The position numbers and the translations under genes are program-made. From a virus, in the IMG/VR virus record IMGVR_UViG_3300045125_000172, positions 8,244 through 72,243 of that record: a stretch of DNA of 64,000 nucleotides. One strand, given 5' to 3'. The first letter of the stretch is position 1. Each line of letters begins with the position of its first letter. Below, piece by piece: positions 171 through 41,804 of the stretch. The notes under the pieces are model-generated. The model saw only the letters and a list, made by a program, of their open reading frames with translations, ran no database searches and was not told the DNA's origin.

Positions 171-2456
171 TCAAGGTTTTGGAATATAAGTTTTTTCCGC
201 AACCAAACCGTCTTTGTTTTTTGACTTTGATCCTTTAATTATAAGCACATTACCAATAAATAATTGATTCCTATATTGTTTGTAAACTTCTGGAAAATAT
301 ACGATAGAATCAATAACGGCTGTTCCGTCATTAATTGATACAAAAGCCATTTCCGCGCCCACATCTTTTCCTCTTTTAGTTTTTACAACGCGTATATTTT
401 CTACCTCTCCTGCGAGCATAATACTATTAGCCATATATCCATTCTTAAAATCTTTACAAGAGCAAGTAACCATACTGATATCATACATATCTATTCTAGA
501 GCAACTAATGGAATATCCAAGAAGCATATTTTCTGTATCAGCAATCCACTCGATAGAATCTTGCAATGAGTATGGAGGATTTAACAGACTATATGATAAT
601 TGTTCTATAACAATTTTACGTTTAGCTGTAATTTTACCATTTAATACCACTGCTAGATTTTTTAAGAGCGATAATTTATCATCATAAAATTTGTGTAAAT
701 TTTCACATTCTTTATTGGTTAATTGTGTTATTATATTGTATTCAAATAACATCTGGTTCCTTGTCATACCTAGATGATCCAGTGCTCCGGATTGTATTAG
801 AGCTTTACTAGCTGTAGAATTGATATTATTTAATACAAATAACAAATCCATCCAACTGTATTCTGTTATATTTTTGGTGTTATTATTTAATAAATTTTTT
901 AATTTATCATACGCAGACTTACCAAATCCCTTGATATCTGTTAATCCAAAGAATATTTTACTATTTTTAAGTTCAACAAATTCATTTAATAGTCTTATAT
1001 CTGGTTTGCAGACTTCTATGTTCATTTCTATTGCATTTTGTACAAGTTCTTTAATTTCTGCCTGAGGATCTATTTTATCTTTAGCAAACCTTAAATATGA
1101 CGCAAAAAATATTCTTGGAAAGTGTGCTTTGGCATATGCTGATAAATAACAATTCATAGCATAACTTACCGCATGACTTTTATTAAAAGAATATCTTTGA
1201 CTTTTTTCTATCCAGTTAAAAATTTCTTCAGCTTCTTTTGGTTTTAAAATACCCACTTTTTCACAACCGTTGACGAAAGTATTTTTAAGTTTAGCCATTT
1301 CTTCTGGTTTCTTTTTACCAATTGCTTTGCGTAACATATCTGCTTCTTGCAAATTGAATCCAGCAACAACACGAGCTATTTCCATAGCTTGTTCTTGATA
1401 AACCATTTCTCCGTATGTTGTTTGTAGAATCGGTTCTAAACTCTCATGAAAATAATCCACTGCTTCTTCACCATTTTTTTTATCTATGTAGTGATTACTT
1501 ACACTTTTACCATCTCTAATAGCCTCAAGACAATTATGTACAACTACTCCGCCGGCTATAAAATTATGATGAGGAGCCTTCATAGAAATGTCATAAACAT
1601 CTTTTATTCCTATGGAAATTTTCTCTTTTAAAGTAACCCATCTGCCATGAACAGTGTGTGGTAATCTGTGTTTAACTTTAGCATTATTTACTTTTTCTAT
1701 GGTTATTGATCCTTCACTAAATTGTCTATGATGATTAGGACACATATAGCACAAGTTATCTGGATCATTATTTGTAAACCTATTACCATCTATATGGTTA
1801 ACGTCAAGAGAACCAGATGTCCAATCACAGAATATACATTTTTCTATATATCTATTGTAACATCTTCTCCTAAAACACCTAGTTCCAAATCCTGGTTTTT
1901 TATAAATTGGACCTCTTCTTTGTCTTACTAAGATTCTATCTCCAATATTGATATCTCTTAATTCTTTCCATCCATACGGAGTCAAAAGTTTGTGGTCTTC
2001 TGTACATTCTAACTTATAGTCTTTTTCTCCACTTTTGGTTGTTTTTCTTTCTGTAGAATTAATCACTATTTTAAAACATTCTTTTTGTCCAGTGTAAAAT
2101 GCATTTAGCATAGGGTTTGTTACAAATATGCCATTTTTTTCATCGTAGGAAAGTAACTCTGGATATTGATTTGGATTATTGGCAATGTCTTTTATTTTAA
2201 CATTGATATAACTATCTCTACCATCTTTACGAACATATTTTCTCACAGATATTTTTGTGTCACCGGAGATACATCCTGGTCTCATGATACTAATTAAAGC
2301 AGCCAATTCTTCTATATTAGATGGCTTTAATTTTTTAGCCATTGATCGTCCAAGTCTTGATTCTAATTGGAAACATCCTTTTGTATTTCCACTAGAAATC
2401 AAACCCCAAGTTTTTGGACAATCAAGATCCATTGAGGATATGTCAGCATTAAACAT
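171..2456 (-). CDS. dnaE: DNA polymerase III alpha (DnaE) C-terminal half, containing an intein
   Basis: GCFQLES, SIMRPG, MVYQEQAM, ADMLRKAIGKKK, YSFNKSHAVSYA and the C-terminal OB fold (KTKRGKDVGAEMAFVSINDG) are DnaE motifs. Confidence 0.95.
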   Translation of the reverse strand: MFNADISSMDLDCPKTWGLISSGNTKGCFQLESRLGRSMAKKLKPSNIEELAALISIMRPGCISGDTKISVRKYVRKDGRDSYINVKIKDIANNPNQYPELLSYDEKNGIFVTNPMLNAFYTGQKECFKIVINSTERKTTKSGEKDYKLECTEDHKLLTPYGWKELRDINIGDRILVRQRRGPIYKKPGFGTRCFRRRCYNRYIEKCIFCDWTSGSLDVNHIDGNRFTNNDPDNLCYMCPNHHRQFSEGSITIEKVNNAKVKHRLPHTVHGRWVTLKEKISIGIKDVYDISMKAPHHNFIAGGVVVHNCLEAIRDGKSVSNHYIDKKNGEEAVDYFHESLEPILQTTYGEMVYQEQAMEIARVVAGFNLQEADMLRKAIGKKKPEEMAKLKNTFVNGCEKVGILKPKEAEEIFNWIEKSQRYSFNKSHAVSYAMNCYLSAYAKAHFPRIFFASYLRFAKDKIDPQAEIKELVQNAIEMNIEVCKPDIRLLNEFVELKNSKIFFGLTDIKGFGKSAYDKLKNLLNNNTKNITEYSWMDLLFVLNNINSTASKALIQSGALDHLGMTRNQMLFEYNIITQLTNKECENLHKFYDDKLSLLKNLAVVLNGKITAKRKIVIEQLSYSLLNPPYSLQDSIEWIADTENMLLGYSISCSRIDMYDISMVTCSCKDFKNGYMANSIMLAGEVENIRVVKTKRGKDVGAEMAFVSINDGTAVIDSIVYFPEVYKQYRNQLFIGNVLIIKGSKSKNKDGLVAEKTYIPKP
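1533..2273 (-). mobile_element. Intein (247 aa) with HNH homing endonuclease, in DnaE-C
   Basis: Starts CISGDT (block A); has LECTEDHKLLT (block B TxxH), DVYDISMKAPHHNFIAGGVVVHN followed by Cys+1; internal CIFC..LDVNHIDGNRFTNNDPDNLCYMCPNHH is an HNH motif. Confidence 0.92.
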
Positions 2457-3141
2457 TCAAAAAAGCGTCCTTAAATTTAATTTTATTACACAAATTCTTA
2501 TGAAGTTTCAAAAATCTTAATAGTATAGCAGCACAGTCTTTTACATCTTTTAGAGCGTCGTGTGCATTGTCTTTTGATATTCCTAGATAATCTCTTACAT
2601 TATCTAATGATAAGCTTTTAATATCTTCCACATCAAAGAACCAATAGTATACTAGATTCATAATATCTAATACATCTCTTGGATAAAATATATTGGATTC
2701 ACTCTCTTTATTAACATTACCATATTTATTGCTAAGTCTATTAACAATTTTTAAATCAAACCTATATATGTTATATCCTGCCGCAATTGGTGCTGAAAAC
2801 TGTGATTTTTTTGTTGATCTACAGTGATATTTATCCAAGTATTCATTGAACATTGTCCACGCCTGCTTTTGTGGCATAGATTTGTGCCAAGAACTTAATA
2901 TATCTTCCTGAGAACATCCTCGTACTTTTGAATGAAATCCAAGGATATCGCTATCATACTTGAAGTCAGGATCGTTGTCAAGCTTATCTGGCTTGACCAT
3001 GATATTGAATTCGGAATTTGGAACTATATCCATTTTTGATGGATCGATCATAATAGCAGCAATTTGAACAGGACTACATATTGATGGATCAGCACCGTCG
3101 GTTTCAAAATCAAACACGCAAATTTTATTGTATTGTTTCAT
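2449..3141 (-). CDS. DnaQ-like DEDDh 3'-5' exonuclease
   Basis: VFDFETDG (ExoI), AGYNIYRFD (ExoII), AHDALKD (ExoIII). Confidence 0.9.
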   Translation of the reverse strand: MKQYNKICVFDFETDGADPSICSPVQIAAIMIDPSKMDIVPNSEFNIMVKPDKLDNDPDFKYDSDILGFHSKVRGCSQEDILSSWHKSMPQKQAWTMFNEYLDKYHCRSTKKSQFSAPIAAGYNIYRFDLKIVNRLSNKYGNVNKESESNIFYPRDVLDIMNLVYYWFFDVEDIKSLSLDNVRDYLGISKDNAHDALKDVKDCAAILLRFLKLHKNLCNKIKFKDAFLNV

Positions 3142-3143
3142 TA

Positions 3144-3317
3144 TCAGTTAACCTGAACCTCTTGTAGTGGTGTAATCATAACCTTTTCGTTTGTTGCCTC
3201 TTTAAGAGCATTTAATACTTTGCAGCAGCTAACACGCTCTTCCTCTGCCTTAATATATGTTTCATTATTAAGTGTAAATTTTTCTCCAATATTTAAATCT
3301 TTAAATAATTTATTCAT
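3144..3317 (-). CDS. Small hypothetical protein (57 aa)
   Basis: Manual ORF MNKLFKDLNIGEKFTLNNETYIK...QVN* with AAGGAG RBS; fills the gap between dnaE-N and the exonuclease. Confidence 0.6.
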   Translation of the reverse strand: MNKLFKDLNIGEKFTLNNETYIKAEEERVSCCKVLNALKEATNEKVMITPLQEVQVN

Positions 3318-3319
3318 TA

Positions 3320-5199
3320 TTATTCTCCTTTTAATAAATCTTGAATTGTCATAATTTTATCCAGCATGGCGATACCGAGAATATCGAATTTAATAATACC
3401 TAGACTTTCTAAATCTTGCATTTCCATACCGGCGATTGTTTGATCGTTCTTACTATCATAAACCATTGGACAAGACTCTCCAAGAGGGGTAGGACTTATC
3501 GCTATCCCAGCAGCATGTTTTGATTGATTAGTTTTTGTTCCTTCTAATCTTATTGCTTGCTCAAATCTTTTTGCTAGTGGACCAACCAGATTATCATTAT
3601 CATCAATATAGCACCATTCTGATAGTTCTTTTGATTTATTTTCTAATGCCCATCTAATAATTGATGCTTCTCCATATTCTTCTTTCATGTCTTGCAATTC
3701 GTCTGCTATTTTAGCTTCGTCTGGAATATGTTTAGTAATATTATTCATTTCTTCAAACGTAATATTGCCATAAGCTCTTAAAACATCTTTTAATGCTCCT
3801 CGACCTTTCATTGTATTAAAAGTAATCATTTGTGAAACTTTATCATGACCATACTTATCTTTGATATAGTTGATAACATCTTCTCGTTTGTTAATAGGAA
3901 CGTCAACATCAATATCTGGCATTGATATATGATTAGCTGTATTTCTTCCAGAATTATAAAATCTGTCAAAAATCAATCCATATTTTATAGGATCTATCGC
4001 TGTTATGCCTACTAAATATGAAACCATACACCCAGCAGCAGAACCTCTTCCGGGACCGGGCAGCCAATTATTAGATCGAACATACTGTAGGATATCTTGA
4101 ATGATTAAGAAATAACTTGATAGACCAGCGTTCTGTAACACAGATAATTCGTATTTTATTCTTTCTACATATTGATTTGTCATGTGTTCATTATTATGGA
4201 CTTTTTCTGTTATTTTTTCTTTCCATCCGTTGCGACATAGTTCCCTTAAATATTCTGCTTCTGAGAAACCGTCTGGACATTTAAAATTCGGTAATGTTGG
4301 CTTGGAAGTAATATCATAGTTTTCACATAAAGAGTCTATATAATTTGTATTATCTATCTCTTCTTCTGTGTGTAGCTGATTAATTTCTTCATGATCTAAT
4401 ATATGATAATTATCAGAGATAAAAAATGTCTCCATACCAACTTCTTCATTATTTAGAATTTTTGAGTAACATCTGTTAGTGTTGTTTTTAAGATTATTAC
4501 ATAATAAAATCCTTTGATCAACAGCGTCCTCTTTTTCTGCATAATGAGCATCCGGTGTGCATATAACTTTAAGCCCTGTTTCTGATGAAATACTTCTAAC
4601 GCATTCCGTCATTTTAGATTGCATAGGGTTGTTAGTCCAATCCATCAATTGAGCTTCTAGAAAAAAATTATCTGAGCCACCAAAAATTTCTTTTAGATAG
4701 GAAGCTTTATTAATTAAAATGTCTTTCCAGTCCGGATTTATCTCGGTATAATTACTAATACTATTAGCTAGAACTGATCCTAAGTGTCCAGCAAATCCTA
4801 TTATGTTTCCATCCAACAGAGAGCCAAGTCGTACTAAGTCTATTCTTGGTTTATAATAATAAAATTCTGGTTTGTTGGTTTCCGATATTATCTTTATAAG
4901 AGTTTTCCATCCAGCATAGTTTTTAGCTAAAATAACCAAATGGCTTAGTTTTTTATTGTCATTATTTTTAATTGATGCATCATCATCACATACATACAAT
5001 TCACAGCCAAGTATGGGTTTGATTCCATTTTTTTCATGCACGAATGGAACTTAACAGCACCTGCTATGTTCCCGTGATCGGTTAACGCGCATGTTTTAAT
5101 ACCTGTTTTGATACATCTTTTTGCAATTTGTTCTGGCTTAGATAATCCGTCTAAAATTGAAAAGTGACTATGAACATGCAATGGAGTATAATGTTTCAT
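3320..5199 (-). CDS. dnaE: DNA polymerase III alpha (DnaE) N-terminal half (PHP + palm); one frameshift near 5040
   Basis: LHVHSHFSILDG and ALTDHGN (PHP); GPGRGSAAG, PDIDVD, HAAG, KFDILG (catalytic Asp motifs); ends TIQDLLKGE*. Confidence 0.93.
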
Positions 5200-7886: not shown

Positions 7887-9311
7887 CTTTAACTTCGAAC
7901 CCATCTTCATCATCTTTTCCATTTACAATCTCCAATCTGGTTTTTCCTTCAGTAATTTTTGCACACCAACCCTTCATGTGACAATTGATATAATCATTAT
8001 CCTCAAGTCCTGCCCCGTGTCTACTAATCAATGGTATAAGTTTTCTGTTTCCGTTTGTTGGTCCATCTTCTGCAATTTCTTCATCACTTTTTCTTTTAAA
8101 TATAGAAAAATTACTACACAACCATATAATTCTATCTGATCCACTCGCTGTGTCTGTGCTTTCTTTTGTTATTCCGTCTCTATTTAATTGCACAAATGCC
8201 ACGATTGGTAATTGATATTTACAGGCAAAATTATGTAATGTGGTCATCATAAAACCAAGAACTTGGTATTCTTTCATATCTTGGCTTATACCAGCACTAT
8301 CCATAAGTTTTAGATAGTCATAAAAAATTACACAGGGTTTTGCTGTGCCGTCTGAATTCAATCCTACTTCTTTAATTATCCATCTTCGCATAATAGACAA
8401 TTGCTCATCAAAAGATTTACCAGCGATAGACTTGTGAAACAATGGTGTTTGTTTTAAATCGTTAACAGCATCTTCTATCTTCTTTTTAAGGATGGTGTTT
8501 GTGCAAACTTTCCGCTTTCAATTTTATTGATCTCTATCTCTGTCATCATTGCTAATATGCGATGAATATGATCTCCTTTAGTCATTTCTGTATCCATATT
8601 CAACACCGGTATTTTTAATTTATTTGCAATATAAAAACCCATATTATCAGATAACAGAGTTTTACCGGTCTTTGGTCTTGCTGCAATAACATTGATAGTA
8701 CTTTTTCTTAAACCACCACCAATAGCAAAATCGTATGCCGGAAATCCTGTAGAAATACCGACCTGATCTATTGGATTAGCTATTAAGTCTTCTATATATT
8801 CTTCTAGATTATCACTAATTTGTATAGGACTACTATCCTGATCCTCCATAGATGTGCTAAAGTTTAATATTGGTTCTTCAACCAAACTCATTATATGAGA
8901 AATGGGTTCGGATCCCGTAACATTAAGCACATTATTTTTTATATCGTCTAATTTTTTATGTAATTTTCTGGCTATTTCTAATTTTCTAATCTTCGCAGCA
9001 AACTGTAATAGATTATCAAAATTTGCAGGAAAATCCAAGATTGCTTTTAGGTGTTGCGTCTCCTCTTTTTTCTGCAAAACATAGTCTAAATCTAATTCTT
9101 TGGCTGCGGAGAAGATAGAGGCTATATCAATTGATTGACAATTATGGTCAACAAATATCTTTTTTAAACATTTGTATATAATAATATTACTATCTATTGT
9201 AAAACTATTTTCATTTAAAATATCTGCAACTTCCAGATATGCTTTTTCTCCATACTGACATAATATGGATAAGACTGCTCTTTCAGCAGATGGGTCGAAT
9301 AGGATATTCAT
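7861..9311 (-). CDS. dnaB: Replicative DnaB-like helicase; frameshift near 8470
   Basis: AERAVLS N-terminus, GISTGF, AARPKTGKT (Walker A), MDTEM, FYDYLK, QLNRDG, SGSDRI. Confidence 0.92.
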
Positions 9312-31264: not shown

Positions 31265-32358
31265 CTATGATATACACTGAATTAGCTGTTGTGCCGAATG
31301 TTGCCAAGAATATTTTTGACCAGTTTTTATCCCGTGTATATTAGTTCTAATGTTATTTTTATAAACATATCTCATATAATCTATAGTCTGATCTATTTGT
31401 TGTTGTCCTATTTTTGCCCAATTTCCATGTCCTAGAAACCATTTTCCATCAAAAGCTGTTTCTTTTTCTGTTATATCTATTAAGAATGAATTATTTTTAT
31501 CACAAAATTCTGTATGAGCCGAATAATTAGTTGTAATTACCGGCTTGTTCATAGCCATAACTTCTAATAGTTCCAGATTCCAGCCTTCTGCTCTGGACAC
31601 AAATAATCCGCAGTCAGCTTTGGATATTAGATCAGCAACATCTTTTTGTGCTTTAACTCTTGGAATGATTCTTATTTTTGATGCTAGTGGTCCCGATGAG
31701 TAGAAACTGTGCCACTGATCCATTTCTTGTTGACTAAAACACGTAGGATCTGACGAACCCATCAACCATAGCTCTACATTATCTTCTGTACTAAATGCTT
31801 TATTAAACAAATCTAATAATAGATCATACCCTTTTCTAACTTCCCATTTACCTATCATAATAAAAACATATGGGTCGTTTGATTGTTTAGTATTTTTATC
31901 TGATAGTTTATAATCAAAAATAGTATTATCTATTCCTAATGGTACAATATTGATTTTTTGTTTTATACCATTATCTTCCAGTATTTTTTTGCCCAATTCG
32001 AAGATACTATGAGTTCATCTGGAACTTTTAAATGTTTTTGTTCTATCTCATTAAATTTATCTAGCTCAAAAAAAGGAAAACCAAAATATCTTCCTGTTGC
32101 TACTCTGGTTTCCAAATCGAATTGATGCCATATTTTAACACATGAGTGCTTTTGGGTCATAATCATTATTAATCATGCTTCCTAAAAGATTATCATCGTC
32201 TTGTGTGTCCAGCGGGGGATATAACCATTTTGCATAGTTATTGGATGTATATGGATATCACAACCCAAATTATGAGCTTGTTTTGCTATGTTCCAACCAA
32301 CAACGCCATACCCTGTATATCCCATTGGACTCATAAGTATCATTTTGCTGTTATTCAT
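31265..32358 (-). CDS. Glycosyltransferase, GT4-type (frameshifted)
   Basis: [10 protein letters not shown]-terminus, [41 protein letters not shown]. Confidence 0.88.
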
Positions 32359-33477
32359 TTTTCATAAACTCTATTATGTGTGTTATTAACCTGAATAAAT
32401 GTTGTTTTTTTACCGAAATCTTTAATTTTAGTAGCGCCTATATAGGTGCATGCGCTACGTAATCCACCATAAATATCTTGCAAAACCTCAATGGCTTTAC
32501 CTTTATATGGAACTGTAACACATTTTCCTTCTGCTGTTCTATATGACGCAACGCCGTCGTGATGCTTATCCATAGCATTTTTACTACTCATTCCGTAATA
32601 TTGCAAAGATACTTTGCGTTTTTCTACATCTGGATATTGAGGATCAATTGGCTGCCATCCTCCACTTCTCATTTTCCATTCATATTTCCATTCTCCTTCG
32701 CATTCATCAACACCAGCGAACATACTACCAAGCATTACAAAATCAGTATTACCACCAAATGCTTTACAAACATCTCCCACTGTCTTACAGCCACCATCAC
32801 TACAAATATGACCCCCAAGACCATGAGCAGCGTCCGAACACTCCATCACAGCACTCAATTGAGGGTATCCTACGCCAGTTTTTAAACGAGTAGTACAAAC
32901 ACTGCCTGATCCTATACCAACCTTGACTATATCCACTTTGCCGTGAATGATTAGTTCTTCTACCATTTCTGGCGTTACCACGTTACCGGCCATTAGAATA
33001 ATTTCAGGATATAATTTTCTGAATATGTAGTAGCTATCTTTACAAATTGCTCAGTATATCCGTTTGCAACATCTAAACAAACATTTGGCGGATCAAATCC
33101 TGTAATTTTAATTGTATCAAAGATTTGTTCTAGTTTATGTATATCTTTATTCGATGTACCAGTAGAGTACAAAATAAGATCTTTGTATTTGAATTTATAT
33201 CACTAGTATATAAATTAATTAATGAATCATCATCATAATGTTTATGTAAGACACGTTATTGCTTGATTCTATAGTGACAGTATCTGCCATCGATAGTGTA
33301 CCAACAGTATCCATATTAGCAACCATAATCGGTATACAAGTTATTGATCGTGAAGAATGCGCAAATTTAAAAGTTCTAGTCAAATCGACTTCTGATCTAC
33401 TATTTAATAGTGATCTTTTTGGACGAATTAAGAACATCATCAAAATCTAGTTTTGTTTCATTAATTATTTTTTGCAT
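32355..33477 (-). CDS. guaC: GMP reductase (frameshifted)
   Basis: [63 protein letters not shown]. Confidence 0.92.
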
Positions 33478-33478
33478 A

Positions 33479-34386
33479 TTATTTTCTTAGTAAATGATAG
33501 TTTTTGATAAAATATTCTATAGTTAGATATAGTCCGTCTTGGATTGATGTGAATTTAAATCCTGGAAATAAACTTTTTACTGTATTACTGTTGCTTGACC
33601 GTATCATCATACCTTCTGGCTTTGATTTGTCAAAAATAACTTTCCTTTTGAAATCCATAATTTTTTACAATGTTCTCAACAACTTCTTGTATAGAATAGC
33701 ATACTCCTGGAGATATAATAATTTCTTGCGGCAACGCTATCATTTTAGACATGATACTCAACAAATCAGCAACATCTGGTGCAAAAATAAACTCTCTTTG
33801 AGCTTTACCAGAACCCCAAACCTCTAAGTCTGTATTATTTAATTTGGCAAGATAGGTTTTATGAATCAGTCCCGGAATAACATGGCTATCATTTAGATTA
33901 TAATTATCTTTTAAGCCATACATATTACTTGGAATAATACACGAAGATCTTATCCCATATTGTTTTATTAAACATTTAGATCCTATGCTTAGTATTCTTT
34001 TACTCATGAGCATATCCGTAATTTGATTGGTGAGGCTCTCCTTGTAGAAGGTATTCTTCCATTAGTGGATTATTCGAATCTTTAGGAAAAATACATCCAG
34101 ATAACATAAATATAGAATCTTGTAAACTATATCTCTGACAGACCTTTAAGATATTTGTATTAATTTCTAAATTATCTATTAGAAAATCATATGGATATAA
34201 AGAATTTGCATTCACACCACCAACTCTAGCGGCTAAATGAAATATTCTATCAATATTATTAACTTCTATAAAGTTACAAAGTTGTTCAAAGTTGTTGAGA
34301 TTTAACTCTGACTTGGTTGGTTTAAATCCAAAATTTATACAACTACCCAGCAGACCATTGCCTCCGGTTACTAAGATGTTGCTCAT
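33479..34386 (-). CDS. GDP-L-fucose synthase / ColC-like reductase (frameshifted)
   Basis: ILVTGGNGLLG, FHLAARVGGV, GCIFP, HQSNYGYA..KR, PSNMYG..DNY..SHVIPGLI, WGSGKAQREF. Confidence 0.88.
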
Positions 34387-35237
34387 ATAAACTCCAGAGA
34401 TTCGTTTGATAGTCCCCAACCATCTCCGTTTGCTGTAAAATTTTCTGGCCTGATACCATATGGATTCATTATGGATCTGTAATCTTTACCAGCATCATGA
34501 TGATCTAAATGAAAAAATAATATATTACTATCCTCAAGATCTCCGCCAAATTTATATTTTGTTGATAATCTAATATGTAATTCTATATCTTGCCATCCCC
34601 AGTATGGAAGTTCCTCCCACCAACAGGGTGCTATCCTCGCCAATTTTTCTAGATATTAATAGTGACATTGCTCTTCCATCAAAACCGTTGGTATTTATTT
34701 TATCATGACGAAATAAAGATAAATCATTGTATGTAATAAAATTATCTACATCATGAAAAGAAATAGAGTTATTATAACATTTTCTAGGAAGATGATATCT
34801 AGATCCCCAAAAGAATATGTCTTCGTTACCAGATTCCGATAAGCGTTCAACAAAATTTACAAGATTACTAAAATTAGCATAAGTGATAAAACAATCTGAA
34901 TCCCAAAAAATTGTATATTTTCCTGTACTATTTTTAAATGCTACATTATAGGCATGAGATATAGAGTAATCCGATTGTTTACTATATTTTTTACCAATAC
35001 TTTGTGGCACATAAACACACTTGAAATTTTGATGTCTATCTTCTATTAGATCGTCAACTATCTTTTTTCGCTACCCCAGTCACATAATACTACCTCAATA
35101 TTTGAATTATTTAATTCATTTAAATTATCAGATAATTTATTAAGACTCATTCCTAAGCCTTTGATCAACACCACCATTCCCTGTTGAATCACAACCATAT
35201 TTATCATTTTTTCCTTGTAAAAGAATTGAGAGAGCAT
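34383..35237 (-). CDS. Glycosyltransferase, GT2/GT7-like (frameshifted)
   Basis: EVVLCDWGS, ISHAYNVAF, FWDSDCF (DxD), YWGWQDIEL. Confidence 0.7.
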
Positions 35238-35239
35238 TA

Positions 35240-36266
35240 TGTTTTATTGATCCTTTATAAAATTATACCATTCAATACTAGAGAGAATACCAGAATTTAT
35301 ATCGATAAAATTTTTAGTACCAAATTCTTTCTCATATTTATCTATAGAGATACTAACATTTGATGGATTGCCAATTAATGTATTATTTTTATCATTATAC
35401 CTATTGGACTACCGGTATGACTAGAAATAACTTCAGCAATATTTTTGATACTAACTTTTTCTTTTCCTGTGAGATTATATATTGTTGATGATCCATTGCA
35501 TATTACATTGAAAATCATTTCACACATATCTCCAATATAACACAATGTTCTAGTAGCCGATCCATCATCCATTAAAGATATTTTATTACTATTTATAGAT
35601 TTTTTAATCAAATCATTTATTACTCTAGAATCATCTGGCTTGAATCCTGGACCATACGTTGTACTAATACGTCCTATTTTTATTCTGTATTTGTCTGTCA
35701 TACTAAGACAAATAGCCTCACCACATCTTTTAGATTCAATATAGCATGATCTTGGATGGTTGGTTGAGGTTATTCCTATATCTTCTTCAGAAATATTCTC
35801 TTTTATTAATCCGCTATATATTTCACTACTACCACAGTAGAAAAAGTACCTGTTTTATTCAAAAGTTTGAATAAATTCATAACAGTACTAGTATTTAGTT
35901 TTATTGTTGATAATTTATCGTCTAAAAATTTATTAGGTTGAGCATATCCTGCTGAATGTATAATTATATCCGCATCGAACAGATTTTCTGCAAAATAATT
36001 TTCGATCAGATCAATACTATTATTTTCTGTTAAATCACCAACAACAGTTATACAGTTATTGAATAGTTGAGAAAAGTACTTCGGCGGAGCATTATTAACT
36101 AAACATATAATATTAATATTGTATATCTTTTTAAGATGATTTAAAAACCTAATAGATTTATGCCTATTAATCCTGATGCTCCAGTCAGTACTATTGTTTT
36201 ATTGTTTAGAAATTCAAATTTAGAAGTATCTATATTTGTATACTGATCATAAATTAGTTTAAGCAT
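35240..36266 (-). CDS. NAD-dependent epimerase / UDP-glucuronate decarboxylase-like (frameshifted)
   Basis: IVLTGASGLIG, IIHSAGYAQP, SSEIYSG, HPRSCYIESKRCGE (YxxxK), YGPG..DDSRVI, ATRTLCYIGD. Confidence 0.8.
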
Positions 36267-37130
36267 GATTTTATTTTTTGTATTTATATTATCAATATCT
36301 AGACCGAGTTTTACATCGTGTTCGTGTTTTGATCCATAATTGTGCAAAAATTTTCTTGGTATACCAATGTTAGTTATGTTATATGTTTCGTTATGCAAAA
36401 TATTGGATATGATGTAATTGGTTGTTCCCTGGTAAAATGGCTCACATATAATAATTTTTGAATTGAAGTTTTCAAGTAAAACTTTTTCATCAAAAGGCCA
36501 TAATGTACTATAATATAGCAATGTTACATCTAAATTTTTAGTAGCTTCAAATACTTGTTGTAACATCGGACCATAGCATATAACAGTTGCTTTTGATCCT
36601 GTTTTAATAATATTCGCCTTACCATACTGTACATCTAAGTTTAATTCGTGTTCAAATTCGCTAAGCCTAAAATATTTTGGATTATTATTTGAATATGTTT
36701 CTAGTAATAACTGATCTAGTTCTTTAGAATTTCCTGGTATTATGATACTCATATCTTCTATCGTTAGCAACAGAGACACATCACCCGGACAATGATGAGT
36801 ACAGCCTAAGCCAGCGTAATCATAGGATGATCCCACACTAATAAAATTACCATTTAGTTTTTGATAACCAAAATCTATTTTAAGTTGTTCGAAAGCTCGT
36901 TCTACCAGAAACGGTGCTATTGTATGAACAAATGGAACTAAATTACTTTTTGATAATCCGGCAGCCAGACTTATTGTGCTTTGTTCTAATATTCCGATAT
37001 TATATACTCTTTCAGGTATGGATTTTAATTCTTCATTAAAAGCAAACACTCCTATATCGCCTAATAATAAAATACTGTTATTATCTTGATGAAGTATATG
37101 TTTAAGTGTTTTCACAAATTGTTTTCTCAT
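36260..37130 (-). CDS. Transketolase-like, C-terminal (pyrimidine-binding) subunit
   Basis: LLGDIG, YNIGILEQSTISLAAGL, ERAFEQLK, GCTHHCPGD, YFRLS. Confidence 0.88.
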
Positions 37131-37680
37131 AATAAATACATCCAACTACTATCTTCATATGTCTTATTTGGGGCTCTATTAAAAATTTCGTTTGTTGCTT
37201 GCTGCACGGATGGCCATGAATAGTCGTGTCCGGAAATTATTCCTCCATTTTTGATTTTTGGTAACCATGCTAAAATATCTTCTTTTACTGATGAATACTG
37301 ATGGTTGCCGTCTATGTAGATAAAATCTATGCTTTGATCTTTAACGAGTTTTACATATTCTATGCTTGGCATTTTATTTTTCTTATATTTGGATTATTCA
37401 GTGCTATCGTATCAAATATCAATTCAGCTTCCTTTAATTCAAGTTCTTGTTTTTCCAAATCAATTATAGAACAATCCTCAGTGTACGGTGTCCAAGGATC
37501 AACGCAATTAACAATACTTTGAGGAAAACTCTGCGCTATAATAGATGAGCTTGCTCCACAGTAACTACCAATCTCTATAATTTGTATATTATCATTTAGA
37601 ATACTAAATACATTCGAACACAAGTGTTTGAGTCCGTATTCATGTATACCTCCACGTAAATTATATGTTAAATTATACAT
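37127..37680 (-). CDS. Class I SAM methyltransferase (Methyltransf_24-like), frameshifted
   Basis: IEIGSYCGAS, IDFIYIDGNHQYSSVKEDI..W, GGIISGHDY. Confidence 0.85.
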
Positions 37681-37681
37681 A

Positions 37682-38407
37682 TTAATTGATGCTTTCTAAA
37701 ATTTTTAGATCTGGTATTTTATGATGCCATTCTGGATTATTTTCCATAAAGTCTATTCCTTTTCCTTTAATTGTTTTACAGATAATCACGTTTGGATTGG
37801 AATTATAATTACTTTGTGCAATACAATATTTTAATTTTTCATGGTCATGACCATCGATTGTTATACAATTCCAACCAAAAGAATTGAATTTAAAATGAAT
37901 CTCTCCAAGATCCAAAGCACGATCTCCTGAATGGTTATAATCCAAAAAACAATATAAATTATCTAATTTATGATTAGATGCTAATAAAGCAGATTCCCAG
38001 ATTGTTCCCTCATTACACTCTCCGTCTCCTATAACAACATAAATGTTTCCTTTTTCTTTTTTAATTTTTTTTGCTAGAGCCATCCCTAAAGCTATCGGTA
38101 GTCCGTGTCCCAAAGATCCTGTGGATGCTTCTATTATAGTGTTATTGGAGCATGGATGTCCGCCAAAATTAGAGTCAAACGAACAAAAATTTTCAAGTAA
38201 ATTTGAATCTATTTTTTTGAAATGCTCTAGTATCACATATAATCCGAGCGCAGCATGACCCTTGGATAATACGAATCTATCTTCTTTTTGTATATTAAAG
38301 TATATTACATATAATATATCTAAAATAGATAAAGAACTTGGTATATGTCCTTCTTTACTTTTATGTGCCAATTCCAATATTCTTTTAATCAGTATATTCT
38401 TATCCAT
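37682..38407 (-). CDS. Transketolase-like, N-terminal (ThDP-binding) subunit
   Basis: GHIPSSLS, FVLSKGHA, STGSLGHGL, GDGECNEG (ThDP motif), KTIKGKG, WHHK. Confidence 0.9.
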   Translation of the reverse strand: MDKNILIKRILELAHKSKEGHIPSSLSILDILYVIYFNIQKEDRFVLSKGHAALGLYVILEHFKKIDSNLLENFCSFDSNFGGHPCSNNTIIEASTGSLGHGLPIALGMALAKKIKKEKGNIYVVIGDGECNEGTIWESALLASNHKLDNLYCFLDYNHSGDRALDLGEIHFKFNSFGWNCITIDGHDHEKLKYCIAQSNYNSNPNVIICKTIKGKGIDFMENNPEWHHKIPDLKILESIN

Positions 38408-39556
38408 TTATGGTACCATTTACTATATTACAAATTTTAGTAATATCGTCACAAGATAACGATGGATGATTTGGCAAATACATTCCATATTTATGAATAA
38501 TTTCTGCAAAAGGATAATCTTGTTTACCATATATATTTGTATAAAACGGCTGACGAGATATGCTTCCACATACTAGTGGTCTACATTCAATATTATTTTG
38601 TATTAAATTTTTAGCTATATTATTTCTATTAGGATGTATTATAGGATAAGCAAAGTTACTAACAAAACTATCAGATTTTATTTTCCAAAAATTATTTTCA
38701 ATTAATGAATCATATTGTAAGAAAATTTCATATCTTTTTTTATTTTTTATATTAATGGTATCTATTTGTTGTATTCCTAAAAAGATTGTATTTCTGTTGG
38801 TCTAAGATTGAAACCAGGATAATAAAAAGTATATAAACTATCAAATTCATCTATATGATATTTATTTCTTAGTTCTTGTGCTGTATTTATCGAAAGATCT
38901 CTATCCCATCCATGAGATCTAATAGATAATATTATTTCATAAAGATTAAAATCATCTGTGGATATTAAACCGCCCTCTATTGTGGAAAAATGGTGTCCAA
39001 AATATGTAGAAAATGTAGAGATGTCTCCGAAGCATCCAGTTTTTACATTATTGTATAAAGATCCAACACTTTCGCATGAATCTTCGAGTAATATAACATC
39101 ATATTTTTTACAAAGTTCATTAATTTCATTAAAACTATTTGGAAATCCTAATATATTAGCTACCATCAAGCATGCTGGATTATGTTCACGAAATATTGTT
39201 TCCAAATGATTTATATCAACACCGAGGTTACAACGATCACCATCGCACAGTATTATTTCAAAACCAAACTGTATTGCTGGACTAATTGTTGTTGACCAAC
39301 TAAGACAAGGCAAAACTATTTTTGAATTTTTTAGTCTGCCAGAAATTTTCATGGCGTATACCATTAGAAGATTAGCAGACGATCCAGAGTTTACAAAGAC
39401 TGAATATTTTCTACCCAGCCACTCGGACCATTTTTCTTCAAATTGTATTGTCAATTTATCCTTAGTTAATCTAGGATATGTAGATAGCCATGAGCATAGT
39501 TTATCTATGTCTGTGTTTGTTATAGTGTCTTGAGCTAATTTGATTTGTTTTGACAT
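38400..39556 (-). CDS. DegT/DnrJ PLP enzyme, ColD/perosamine-synthase-like (frameshift near 38777)
   Basis: FVNSGSSANLL, LLEDSCES, FSTYFGHHFSTIEGG, LRSHGW, FNLRPTEI; continues ECRPLVCGSI..LPNHP. Confidence 0.88.
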
Positions 39557-39649
39557 TATTTTATCTAAATGGAAGTAAACTATATTTATGTTCTGCTATC
39601 AAAGATCCATATTTAACAGTATCTATTATATTTTCTTTACCTATAAAAT

Positions 39650-40434
39650 CTAATAATACGTTTGACATAATTTTTCCGGATCTCCAAAATTATTATTATC
39701 AAATTCTTTAATCATTCTAAATAAAGTATTTGAATATTGATTCATTATATGAGATCCGCCAAATGCTATTTTATCGTTATTTGGCCCTGGTATATACAGC
39801 TTATCATTATTAAGCTGATCCAATCTAATAACTGTGTCGCATATTGTTATATCAAAAAACATATCTGGTCTTAATCTGAAGACCCAATCATATTCACAAT
39901 TATTAATATATTCTTCCTGTAATTTTAGTAGATTTGCTCTATATATTAGATAGAACATTTTTGATGATCCTATAACCCCATTATGTATTCCTCGTCCATC
40001 CCAATTATAGGTCTTATTAGTTAATATATTATATTGTAGTGGAGAAAATTTTGATGCATAAAAGTTGTAATCATTTATATCTACTGATTTTGCTTGAAAA
40101 TTATCTATAATATCGGAAATATTAACATCTATTTCACTACTTCCTGGTTCTGATAGTCCGTGTGCTCCTGACCAACAATTTGCGCTGTTCTGTTTATTCC
40201 AAGTCGAAACAAACACATCGACTTTTCCATATCTACTAATTAGATTTTTAAAATCCAGATAATTTTTTGTAATTCTTTTATAATCTCTTATATGTCCGGA
40301 TATACAAAATGCTATTGATAGGTTATCTTTTTTTGATTTTTCTGGATTTAGATGCTGTTGTATTATTTTTTCTGCTTCTATAATTTGATTATAGCGTTTT
40401 CTAAAAATATTTTTTGTAAATATTTACTGTACAT
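39650..40434 (-). CDS. Hypothetical glycan-related protein
   Basis: IAFCISGHIRDY..VDVFVSTW..YDWVFRLRPDM motif set, common in polysaccharide loci. Confidence 0.5.
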
Positions 40435-40443
40435 TATTAATTT

Positions 40444-41804
40444 CTATAAATTATACTTTATAAACATTTCTAGATCTTCTGGTGTACCTAAACCCCACAT
40501 ATTTTTAATATGATAAGTTCTAATTTTTTTATTATCCTGTATAGCTTCATTATACACAGGACATACGTAGAACTCGTTATTGACACGAATATTTTTATCT
40601 ATCATTTGTTCGGCATAGTTTACGAAATCTTTGCCTTTGTTCCAGTAATAAATTCCTACTGTGGCTATATTAGATATGGGTTTTTTCTCTGCAACTTCGG
40701 TAACTAGATTATCTTTATCTAATTTAACAAATGACCATTTAGGATGAGTAGATTCAAAAGTTAATATGCAACCATCTAATTGAGTATTTTCCATACTATA
40801 CATAAAATCTGAACTATTCCAATCAATATATTGGTCAGAATTTGCTATTAGCAGAGGATTTTCATTGTTTATAAAATCTTTTGCCAAAAGCACTGTTCTA
40901 GCTGCGCCATCTGTGATATCATTAACTGTTAATATTTTACATTTTGGTGAAATTATTTCTAAAACATATTTTAGATTAAACTCTTCATAATGTTTTTGCT
41001 GAACAATAAAGATATAATTAGCATCTATATTCAAATTATCAATAATTCTTTTTATCATAGGCTCGCCATTAACATCTATTAATGGTTTTGGAAAAGAATA
41101 TCCTGCTTTTTCGAATCTTGATCCTGCACCGGCCATAGGGATAACTATATTAAGTTTATCATTAATCCATTTGTTTTGATGAGATTTTTATTTATGATCA
41201 TGATTTTAGACAACAAAGATAAGTTAATATCTTTACTATTTTTTACTCTTATAGTATATGCCCCACTGTTTTCAGCTGCTTGAATACCTATTGGAGAATC
41301 TTCAATAATTACTGTTTGTTTTGGAGAAACACCAGCTGATATCATACATTTAAGATAAATTTCTGATGATGGTTTGGCAAGAATTACATCATTATTAGAA
41401 TAAAATAAATCTATATACTTTAGATAACCTGTATAATGTAGAGTCAATTTAACAGTTTCTCTGATGCTATTAGAAGCTACTGCTAAAATAAATCCACTAT
41501 CTTTTAAAGCTTTAAGAGTCTCAAGAATAGTATTGCTCGGCGTTATTTTTGCTATATATTCTATTGTTTTTTTCTGTTTATTAAGATAAATTGTTTTATG
41601 ATGATATTCTGGAAGTCCTTTATTTTTTGTTAAGAGTTTCAATTTATCAAATGTTTTCATACCATCATATATAGAAATATGTTCATTATATGATATTACA
41701 AACGAATCATCTACTTCTTTAATAGCATCATTTAAAGCATGAAAATGGATATCTTTCATGTCCACCAACACACCGTCTAAATCAAAAATTATTAATTTAA
41801 TCAC
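40444..41804 (-). CDS. HAD phosphatase + sugar-nucleotidyltransferase (probably one fused gene, frameshift near 41140)
   Basis: IFDLDGVLVD, LAVASNS, KPSSE, IIEDS; then IVIPMAGAGSRF..PKPLI, ANSDQ, EKKPIS..ATVG, WGLGTPEDL. Confidence 0.85.

Follow-up and report, generated by a model that had tools for sequence, protein, structure and literature searches.

A split transketolase-like gene pair with a remodelled acceptor site in a phage glycan cluster and its possible role in the branching of GDP-deoxysugars

A gene pair encoding a split transketolase (TK)-like enzyme was found on the minus strand of a 64,000-nucleotide stretch of viral DNA (positions 8,244 to 72,243 of IMG/VR record IMGVR_UViG_3300045125_000172), referred to here as the window. 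Judged by their sequences, the subunits TK-N (37682..38407) and TK-C (36255..37130) are shown to be the two halves of a thiamine diphosphate (ThDP) enzyme of the transketolase fold, and a pentose-phosphate role for them is unlikely because the acceptor and phosphate residues H461, D469 and R520 are replaced. The pair encloses a gene for a Methyltransf_24-type S-adenosylmethionine (SAM) methyltransferase (37127..37680) and is followed by an extended short-chain dehydrogenase (SDR) gene, SDR1 (35244..36266). All four gene types had been noted in a first-pass annotation of positions 35240-38407 and are indeed present there, on the minus strand. Their arrangement is far from a chance one, as TK-N and TK-C followed directly by SDR1 recur in many loci and intact syntenic copies occur in two relatives used for comparison, L097 (a Logan assembly) and L001, which lies within G001, a complete genome of 186.8 kb with terminal repeats. 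The module may form the core of a phage-encoded GDP-deoxysugar tailoring pathway in which a GDP-4-keto-deoxyhexose would be branched with a two-carbon unit and then methylated, and we consider the chances of this proposal to be about even.

Both TK genes are intact in the window. TK-N, the ThDP-binding (PP domain) subunit of 241 amino acids (aa), was matched by Pfam Transketolase_N with 104 bits, and TK-C, the subunit of ~291 aa with the pyrimidine-binding and C-terminal domains, was matched by Transket_pyr and Transketolase_C. Among solved structures, both halves are most similar to the split TK of Carboxydothermus hydrogenoformans (PDBID: 6YAK/6YAJ; 157 and 85 bits), with human TK and DXS next, and the N-terminal chain of the Carboxydothermus enzyme (6yak) is the best PDB match of TK-N. 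The phage pair resembles this enzyme in its two-chain layout, although the phage subunits are shorter (~241 and 291 aa compared to deposited chains of 309 and 341). The single-chain TPP_enzyme N/M/C architecture of YerE-like enzymes was not observed, as the three Pfam domains of the pair are Transketolase_N, Transket_pyr and Transketolase_C distributed over two chains and the sole TPP_enzyme match is TPP_enzyme_C with 23 bits over the ThDP-binding motif. Scores with the NCBIfam transketolase models were 180 and 64 bits, whereas the cut-offs of these models range from 488 to 788. No family was returned when PHROGs was searched with TK-C, and a tblastn search of TK-N against 50,697 phage records gave no close match, only matches at 29-40% to unannotated gut-phage contigs and bacterial-looking records.

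Active-site positions were compared using the E. coli TktA and Dxs sequences of the K-12 record as references, with the residue numbering checked and E. coli numbering used throughout. The cofactor and catalytic residues H26, H66, H100, D155, N185, H261, R358, E411 and H473 are retained in the pair. The GDG...N motif and the cofactor-activating glutamate (D155, N185 and E411) are found without exception in the 92 aligned pairs as well as in the window, whilst the catalytic histidines H26, H66, H100, H261 and H473 are kept in the window and are at least 96% conserved across the family. The acceptor side of the site is different. On the basis of the E. coli and yeast TK structures, we take H461, R520, R358 and S385 to bind the substrate phosphate and D469 to read the C2-hydroxyl of the aldose acceptor. 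Only R358 of this phosphate-binding set is retained in the window, and three substitutions, H461 to glycine, D469 to leucine and R520 to glutamate, are found both in the window and in the family. The leucine at position 469 is present in the window, in 54 of the 56 cassette members (loci with the gene order TKN-TKC-SDR1) and in 57 of the 60 viral TK-C sequences. The resulting signature RFGLHE (positions 358, 385, 461, 469, 473 and 520) was found in 52 alignment rows, and the canonical signature RSHDHR is confined to E. coli TktA and two archaeal split TKs in basal position; a third archaeal split TK keeps H461, D469 and R520 and has glutamine in place of H473. The canonical residues of positions 461 and 469 do not occur together in any of the 60 unique viral TK-C sequences. 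Pairwise alignment with 6YAJ likewise places the histidine, aspartate and arginine of the Carboxydothermus enzyme where phage TK-C has glycine, leucine and glutamate. New invariant residues occur near the replaced positions, for example the motifs WHH and THHCPGD and an arginine at position 163 of the N-subunit (N163). The Dxs equivalents D427 and R478 are kept in Dxs and missing from the TK family, and the acceptor site is therefore not DXS-like either. The suggestion in the first-pass annotation that the pair is something other than a housekeeping transketolase withstands the refutation proposed there, since H461, D469 and R520 are lost in the pair but kept in the archaeal split TKs of the same alignment, and since the pair lies within a conserved sugar-nucleotide cassette.

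These residues also bear on whether the pair is an ordinary auxiliary metabolic transketolase that boosts the pentose-phosphate pathway or Calvin cycle of the host during infection. Cyanophages carry other pentose-phosphate pathway genes, and both halves of the pair are called transketolase by Pfam and NCBIfam. Viral tktA genes are interpreted in this way in viral ecology papers (PMC12783922, PMC12482060). We nevertheless regard this explanation as very improbable, as H461, D469 and R520 are missing from all the viral copies examined, the score of 180 bits falls far below the NCBIfam transketolase cut-off of 488 and the genes are always located among sugar-nucleotide and glycosyltransferase genes.

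Homologues of TK-N, typically ~245 aa in length, number in the thousands. Our first locus set contained 91 TK pairs; 80 of its loci came from bacterial and archaeal reference genomes, and another 16 were of viral or assembly origin. SDR1 lies directly downstream of TK-N/TK-C in 56 of these pairs; a second, Fcl-like SDR (SDR2) often follows the cassette, and some loci also contain a DegT/ColD-like gene. A second scan, carried out on IMG/VR, found 169 viral stretches from which 80 loci were kept, nearly all of them with the TKN-TKC-SDR1 order and ~35 with a ColD-like gene. The cassette is conserved across many bacterial phyla as well as at least 80 IMG/VR contigs, and the window matches it both in gene order, with one inserted methylase, and in the R-x-G-L-H-E signature. 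In a phylogeny built from the joined TK-N and TK-C sequences, seven viral sequences, the window among them, group together (SH-aLRT 99). Their sister group consists of two SAR11-type single-cell contigs (SH-aLRT 96), and both groups are nested in a broad clade of mixed bacteria. E. coli TktA and the canonical archaeal split TKs are placed outside. A SAR11 host was considered on account of the sister contigs (L066 and L073) and is a hint only, as these share nothing with the window beyond the cassette and might represent host islands.

The constant partner of the TK pair, SDR1, is by its motifs a UXS/GMD-like extended SDR. Its best PDB match is human UDP-glucuronate decarboxylase (UXS; 80 bits, residues 98-288), and the motif S-[TS]-S-E...Y...K is conserved in 100 members of the SDR1 family. 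The decarboxylase activity given to this gene in the first-pass annotation is only one candidate reaction, as the catalytic set S-[TS]-S-E / YxxxK is common to GMD and UXS/ArnA and no feature specific to decarboxylation could be scored.

The surrounding genes give an indication of the sugar nucleotide involved. A ColD-like gene (38400..39556, minus strand) of the DegT family lies directly upstream of TK-N and is predicted to encode a pyridoxamine phosphate (PMP)-dependent 3-dehydratase of nucleoside diphosphate (NDP)-4-keto-6-deoxyhexoses. Its L097 orthologue scores 225 bits against ColD/WbdK (PDBID: 2gms; also 3gr9) and has His-His where aminotransferases have lysine; in the window, GHHFSTIEGG aligns to SHHIATMEGG of ColD, and Pfam assigns the gene to DegT_DnrJ_EryC1. 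The similarity to ColD together with the His-His in place of lysine identifies it, on sequence grounds, as a 3-dehydratase that would yield a 4-keto-3,6-dideoxy sugar. Downstream of the cassette, SDR2 (33482..34386, minus strand, two frame breaks) is similar to the 3,5-epimerase/4-reductase GDP-L-fucose synthase (Fcl/ColC). All 53 SDR2 members retain the Fcl catalytic residues S107 (or threonine), C109, Y136, K140 and H179, and the L001 orthologue scores 213 bits with the NCBIfam GDP-L-fucose synthase model, which is below the equivalog cut-off of 500 and indicates family-level membership only. A canonical GMD (387 bits) is encoded by G001 next to a sigma-70-like gene (G001:C1:10601-11536; L187:5584-6570). 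It is located ~110 kb from the cassette, in a region that the window record does not span, the record being ~52% complete by estimate. Related phage loci also carry fucosyltransferases of families GT10 and GT11. The ColD-like and Fcl-like genes, the GMD of the complete relative and the fucosyltransferases of the relatives together point to a GDP-sugar rather than UDP-glucuronic acid (UDP-GlcA). Of the two acceptor ideas put forward in the first-pass annotation, a 4-keto sugar is thus plausible, given the 3-dehydratase directly upstream and the GMD in the relative, whereas UDP-GlcA is disfavoured by this GDP-type context.

Methylation is tied to the TK pair, as the first-pass annotation had supposed. 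One or two genes are inserted between TK-N and TK-C in 20 of the 71 unique viral loci compared to 2 of the 75 cellular loci (Fisher p = 1.2e-5). B12-radical-SAM enzymes are a class that commonly methylates, and the inserted genes are mostly methylases, from at least five families, namely Methyltransf_24, TylF-like, FkbM, Methyltransf_25/11 and a B12-radical-SAM enzyme. Natural fusions of TK-C to a class-I methyltransferase were also found (P0121-P0124, 533-576 aa), following a TK-N gene (L183:5229-9190). The cluster with such a fusion also holds SDRs, Methyltransf_24 and B12-radical-SAM enzymes, and appears to represent a separate form of the pathway in which methylation is more extensive. Several other inserts of 271-282 aa have no Pfam match (L108:5971-6819, L117:6725-7570, L119:7311-8150, L139:6728-7573 and L141:6948-7763) and are assumed to form one family; the protein-atlas neighbours of the L117 insert give a lead only, to fucosyltransferases of the NodZ/FUT8/O-FucT type.

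Beyond the presence of the enzymes, the steps of the pathway are inferred. GMD and the ColD-like enzyme would make a GDP-4-keto-(3,)6-deoxyhexose, onto which the TK pair would transfer a ThDP-bound two-carbon unit. Hydroxypyruvate or a ketose is the probable donor, which would supply a glycolaldehyde unit, with a pyruvate-derived hydroxyethyl group as the alternative. One SDR would then reduce the new side-chain carbonyl while the other makes or epimerises the 4-keto intermediate, the methyltransferase wedged between the TK genes would methylate a hydroxyl of the product, and glycosyltransferases would attach the sugar to a host-envelope or virion glycan. The proposal is made by analogy with yersiniose, where a 3-dehydratase is followed by YerE and then by the reductase YerF (PMC12247030).

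The branching of 4-keto sugars is known for YerE and for alpha-KADH2 enzymes (PMC12247030). The yersiniose A pathway of Yersinia pseudotuberculosis (YerE/YerF; a YerE-like enzyme, ErwE, is also described, PMC12247030) resembles the phage cluster in having a nucleotidyltransferase, a 4,6-dehydratase, a PMP-dependent 3-dehydratase, a ThDP-dependent branching step and a reductase. However, YerE is a single-chain enzyme of the AHAS-like decarboxylase superfamily that uses pyruvate and a CDP-sugar (PMC12247030), whereas the phage pair has a transketolase fold, is encoded by two genes and occurs in a GDP-type context (ColD, Fcl and GMD). The phage module appears to be YerE/YerF-like in pathway logic and not a member of the YerE family. 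Closer in enzyme type are the split-gene TKs proposed for hydroxyacetyl branching in miharamycin and amipurimycin biosynthesis, with 13 predicted examples in Streptomyces (PMC12247030). These are likewise two-gene TKs located beside a sugar oxidoreductase and proposed to act on a keto-sugar (PMC12247030), but they belong to actinomycete antibiotic clusters and are unproven in vitro, whereas the phage family extends over many phyla and phages and occurs in glycan loci; the likeness is drawn from their description only. The characterised sulfofructose transketolase SqwGH of the sulfo-TK pathway (PMC9594981) is another two-subunit TK that has moved off sugar-phosphate substrates, although it serves catabolism, with free sulfosugars as its substrates and glyceraldehyde 3-phosphate still as the acceptor of the ketol, and is not found in glycan clusters. 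Our literature search on transketolase in connection with O-antigen clusters, colitose or 'split-gene transketolase' returned nothing relevant.

Several observations weigh against the proposed branching of a GDP-4-keto sugar. No transketolase has been shown to branch sugars or to use a nucleotide sugar or ketone as acceptor (PMC12247030). The R520E substitution adds a negative charge, which is odd for an NDP-bearing substrate, and no new diphosphate-binding site was identified in the family, only the conserved new arginine at N163. Position 385 is phenylalanine or glycine by alignment and never serine, with its loop aligned inconsistently between alignments. Neither the donor nor the reaction of SDR1 can be read from sequence, and the donor-side histidines H66 and H100 are also kept in Dxs and so do not discriminate between donors. 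Finally, no more than roughly a third to a half of the cassettes occur with the ColD-like and Fcl-like genes, and the acceptor therefore need not be a 3,6-dideoxy sugar.

A rival explanation is another ThDP chemistry, carried out by the same module in the same sugar-nucleotide setting. Such chemistry could be a pyruvate-derived branch of the DXS/YerE-like type (acetyl or hydroxyethyl), a chain extension of an exocyclic aldehyde, or a C-C cleavage, in the lyase direction, in the ketol side chain of a higher sugar. Besides the non-discriminating histidines, it is favoured by the higher scores of TK-C with DXS than with full-length TKs (82 bits with the NCBIfam dxs model compared to 64 with the transketolase models; 69 bits against PDBID 2o1s compared to 46 against human TK) and by the heavy remodelling of the acceptor pocket with new histidine, cysteine and arginine residues. 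On the other hand, the closest structural relative overall is a genuine split TK (6yak/6yaj), residues D427 and R478 of Dxs have no counterpart in the family and no maker of a heptose or octose precursor was found in the neighbourhood. We hold this alternative to be possible, with roughly one chance in four of being correct.

TK-like enzymes feed glycolyl units to carrier proteins in natural-product pathways, and the pair could similarly make an activated two-carbon acyl (glycolyl) unit, or use a small non-nucleotide substrate, that is only later joined to the sugar. The loss of H461 together with R520E removes anion-binding sites, which would suit a neutral or cationic small substrate, and the sugar could be modified separately by SDR1 and the methylases. 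Yet no carrier protein, lipoyl domain or acyltransferase was found to recur beside the pair in ~175 loci searched with twelve cluster-protein queries, with no carrier-protein model among them, and the tight overlap of the TKC and SDR1 genes suggests consecutive steps on one substrate. This explanation is accordingly rated as rather unlikely. If the branching of a GDP-4-keto-deoxyhexose is correct, this transketolase-fold enzyme of aquatic phages and many bacterial phyla would be the first transketolase with a nucleotide-activated keto-sugar acceptor. Its products, methylated GDP-deoxysugars that are C-branched by a glycolyl-derived unit, would form a new class with which phages would decorate the host envelope or their own virions, and most of the 'tktA' genes counted in viromes would then not be pentose-phosphate helpers; we put the likelihood of this wider claim somewhat short of even.

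The cluster was read from a record that contains many sequence errors. Neither these frame errors nor the phage origin of the DNA had been recognised in the first-pass annotation. The IMG/VR record is 72 kb long and the window makes up most of it. With a GC content of ~30% and nearly all genes on the minus strand, the window is phage DNA, as identified by rIIB, ribonucleotide reductase (RNR), a DnaB-like helicase, baseplate and tail-fibre proteins and a DnaE polymerase. The possibility of host DNA flanking a 'provirus' record was rejected, as the extra 8.3 kb of the record has the same strand bias and composition and no host flank was seen. Open reading frames (ORFs) are short across the cluster region, and at least 13 frame breaks occur over the 13-kb cluster, where only TK-N and TK-C are unbroken. 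When L097 proteins were mapped on the window by tblastn, one to three frame changes were found in almost every cluster gene, whereas in L097 and L001 the cluster genes are all intact and in the same order as in the window.

Taken as recorded, the breaks might describe a decaying and functionless pseudogene cluster. However, a homopolymer of at least five nucleotides is present in 10 of the 13 break intervals where 2.8 are expected, a count that none of 5000 random placements reached, and in the comparison with L097 the ratio of nonsynonymous to synonymous substitution rates (dN/dS) is 0.04-0.25 to either side of each break, as in the intact TK genes. The breaks are also found record-wide. The window is collinear throughout with G001 (G001:C1:86891-149233), against which ~70 frame changes fall in 44 of the 86 shared ORFs, mostly at A5/T5 runs, and these include essential genes, among them DnaE, the helicase, RNR (3) and rIIA (7; an 881-aa protein directly upstream of rIIB, assigned by assumption). 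The breaks in these genes cannot be real, since a viable phage could not carry them. Because of the homopolymer association, the purifying selection on both sides and the breaks in essential genes, the frame breaks are sequencing or assembly indels rather than gene decay, and the genes are to be read as intact; together with the intact close relatives, this makes a pseudogene cluster the least credible of the explanations, with hardly any probability left to it. An alternative genetic code was also rejected as the source of the fragmented ORFs, as no stop reassignment mends them and the breaks are frame shifts and not in-frame stops. Any split, truncated or fused gene called in this error-rich window needs to be re-read against G001.

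Individual genes of the cassette illustrate this. The methyltransferase gene, with the Pfam match PF13578 on its C-terminal piece, is broken at 37363-37381 on an A5 run, is 65-70% identical in two frames to the intact 184-aa gene of L097 and has a dN/dS of 0.13 on one side of its break and of 0.19 on the other. SDR1 carries breaks at 36144-36153, 35842-35845 and 35402-35408, with Pfam Epimerase matching a fragment, and four collinear tblastn pieces span residues 1-340 of the L097 SDR1. The ColD-like gene changes frame once, at a T5 run (38780-38783), and has its stop codon at 38402-38400, and tblastn with the L097 orthologue also gives two pieces. TK-C, 80% identical to its L097 counterpart, has no stop codon of its own in the window and reads in frame into the SDR1 start codon (36255-36266). 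The TK-C/SDR1 overlap is 5 nt shorter than in L097, with no homopolymer at the junction, and a TK-C::SDR1 fusion was found neither in ~175 loci nor in a search for longer proteins; the in-frame join is either a rare real fusion or another error.

The remaining genes of the cluster are all read from the minus strand where a strand was assigned. A GT2-family glycosyltransferase identified by Pfam (34386..35232) follows SDR1 and contains one break at an A5 run; its orthologues in L097 and L001 are intact at 284 aa. After SDR2 comes a gene of the GMP-reductase/IMPDH family (32358-33431), which is situated between the Fcl-like SDR and a GT4 glycosyltransferase, the next gene in minus-strand reading order. 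The GMP-reductase-like gene keeps its position in L097, L001 and other viral loci and is possibly tied to guanine-nucleotide supply for GDP-sugars. On the other side of the cassette, Pfam identifies a HAD (beta-phosphoglucomutase-like) hydrolase and a sugar-1-phosphate nucleotidyltransferase (40450..41804), which are two ORFs in the window and one 453-aa fusion in L097 and L001, the frame change at 41175-41187 lying beside an A5 run. The nucleotidyltransferase part has 67% DNA identity to Synechococcus phages B3, DSL-LC03 and S-CAM9. Between the nucleotidyltransferase and the ColD-like gene lies a conserved gene of 290 aa without a Pfam match (39564-40423), for which the protein atlas returns hypothetical proteins of phages and bacteria and only a weak lead, to a glycosyltransferase (DUF7796) and a phage glycosyltransferase-like cluster. 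An FkbM methyltransferase is also found upstream of the cluster core, beside these genes.

Outside the cluster, DnaE (171-5199) has a two-gene layout with a 230-aa gene between its halves. The same layout is found in G001 (514 and 628 aa), and the split itself is therefore real, whereas the N-half contains one frame change in the window. The C-half is longer in the window (761 aa compared to 514 in G001) and has Pfam intein and HNH matches, so that an intein insertion seems to be particular to the window phage.

Glycan clusters as such are familiar from lytic aquatic phages. T4-like cyanophages such as P-SSM2 carry lipopolysaccharide and glycan clusters with epimerase, transferase and nucleotidyltransferase genes (PMC1079782). 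The cultured relative Synechococcus phage DSL-LC03, whose cluster was the only one of a cultured phage inspected, has an alpha-1,2-fucosyltransferase and lacks the TK pair.

Transketolase is reported to be among the commonest transcribed viral auxiliary genes and has been interpreted as a booster of the pentose-phosphate pathway (PMC12783922). This interpretation would be wrong if those tktA genes belong to the TK family described here. For sugar branching, YerE-type and E1-type enzymes are known, whereas TK-dependent branching of 4-keto sugars has so far only been proposed, for a few Streptomyces antibiotic clusters; the present family supplies hundreds of natural, compact two-subunit candidates with a remodelled acceptor pocket. 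A full route for the tailoring of GDP-deoxysugars, comprising GMD, the ColD-like enzyme, the TK/SDR module, methylases, the Fcl-like enzyme and glycosyltransferases of the fucosyltransferase type, seems to be present in large aquatic phages and points to an elaborate remodelling of glycans during lytic infection.

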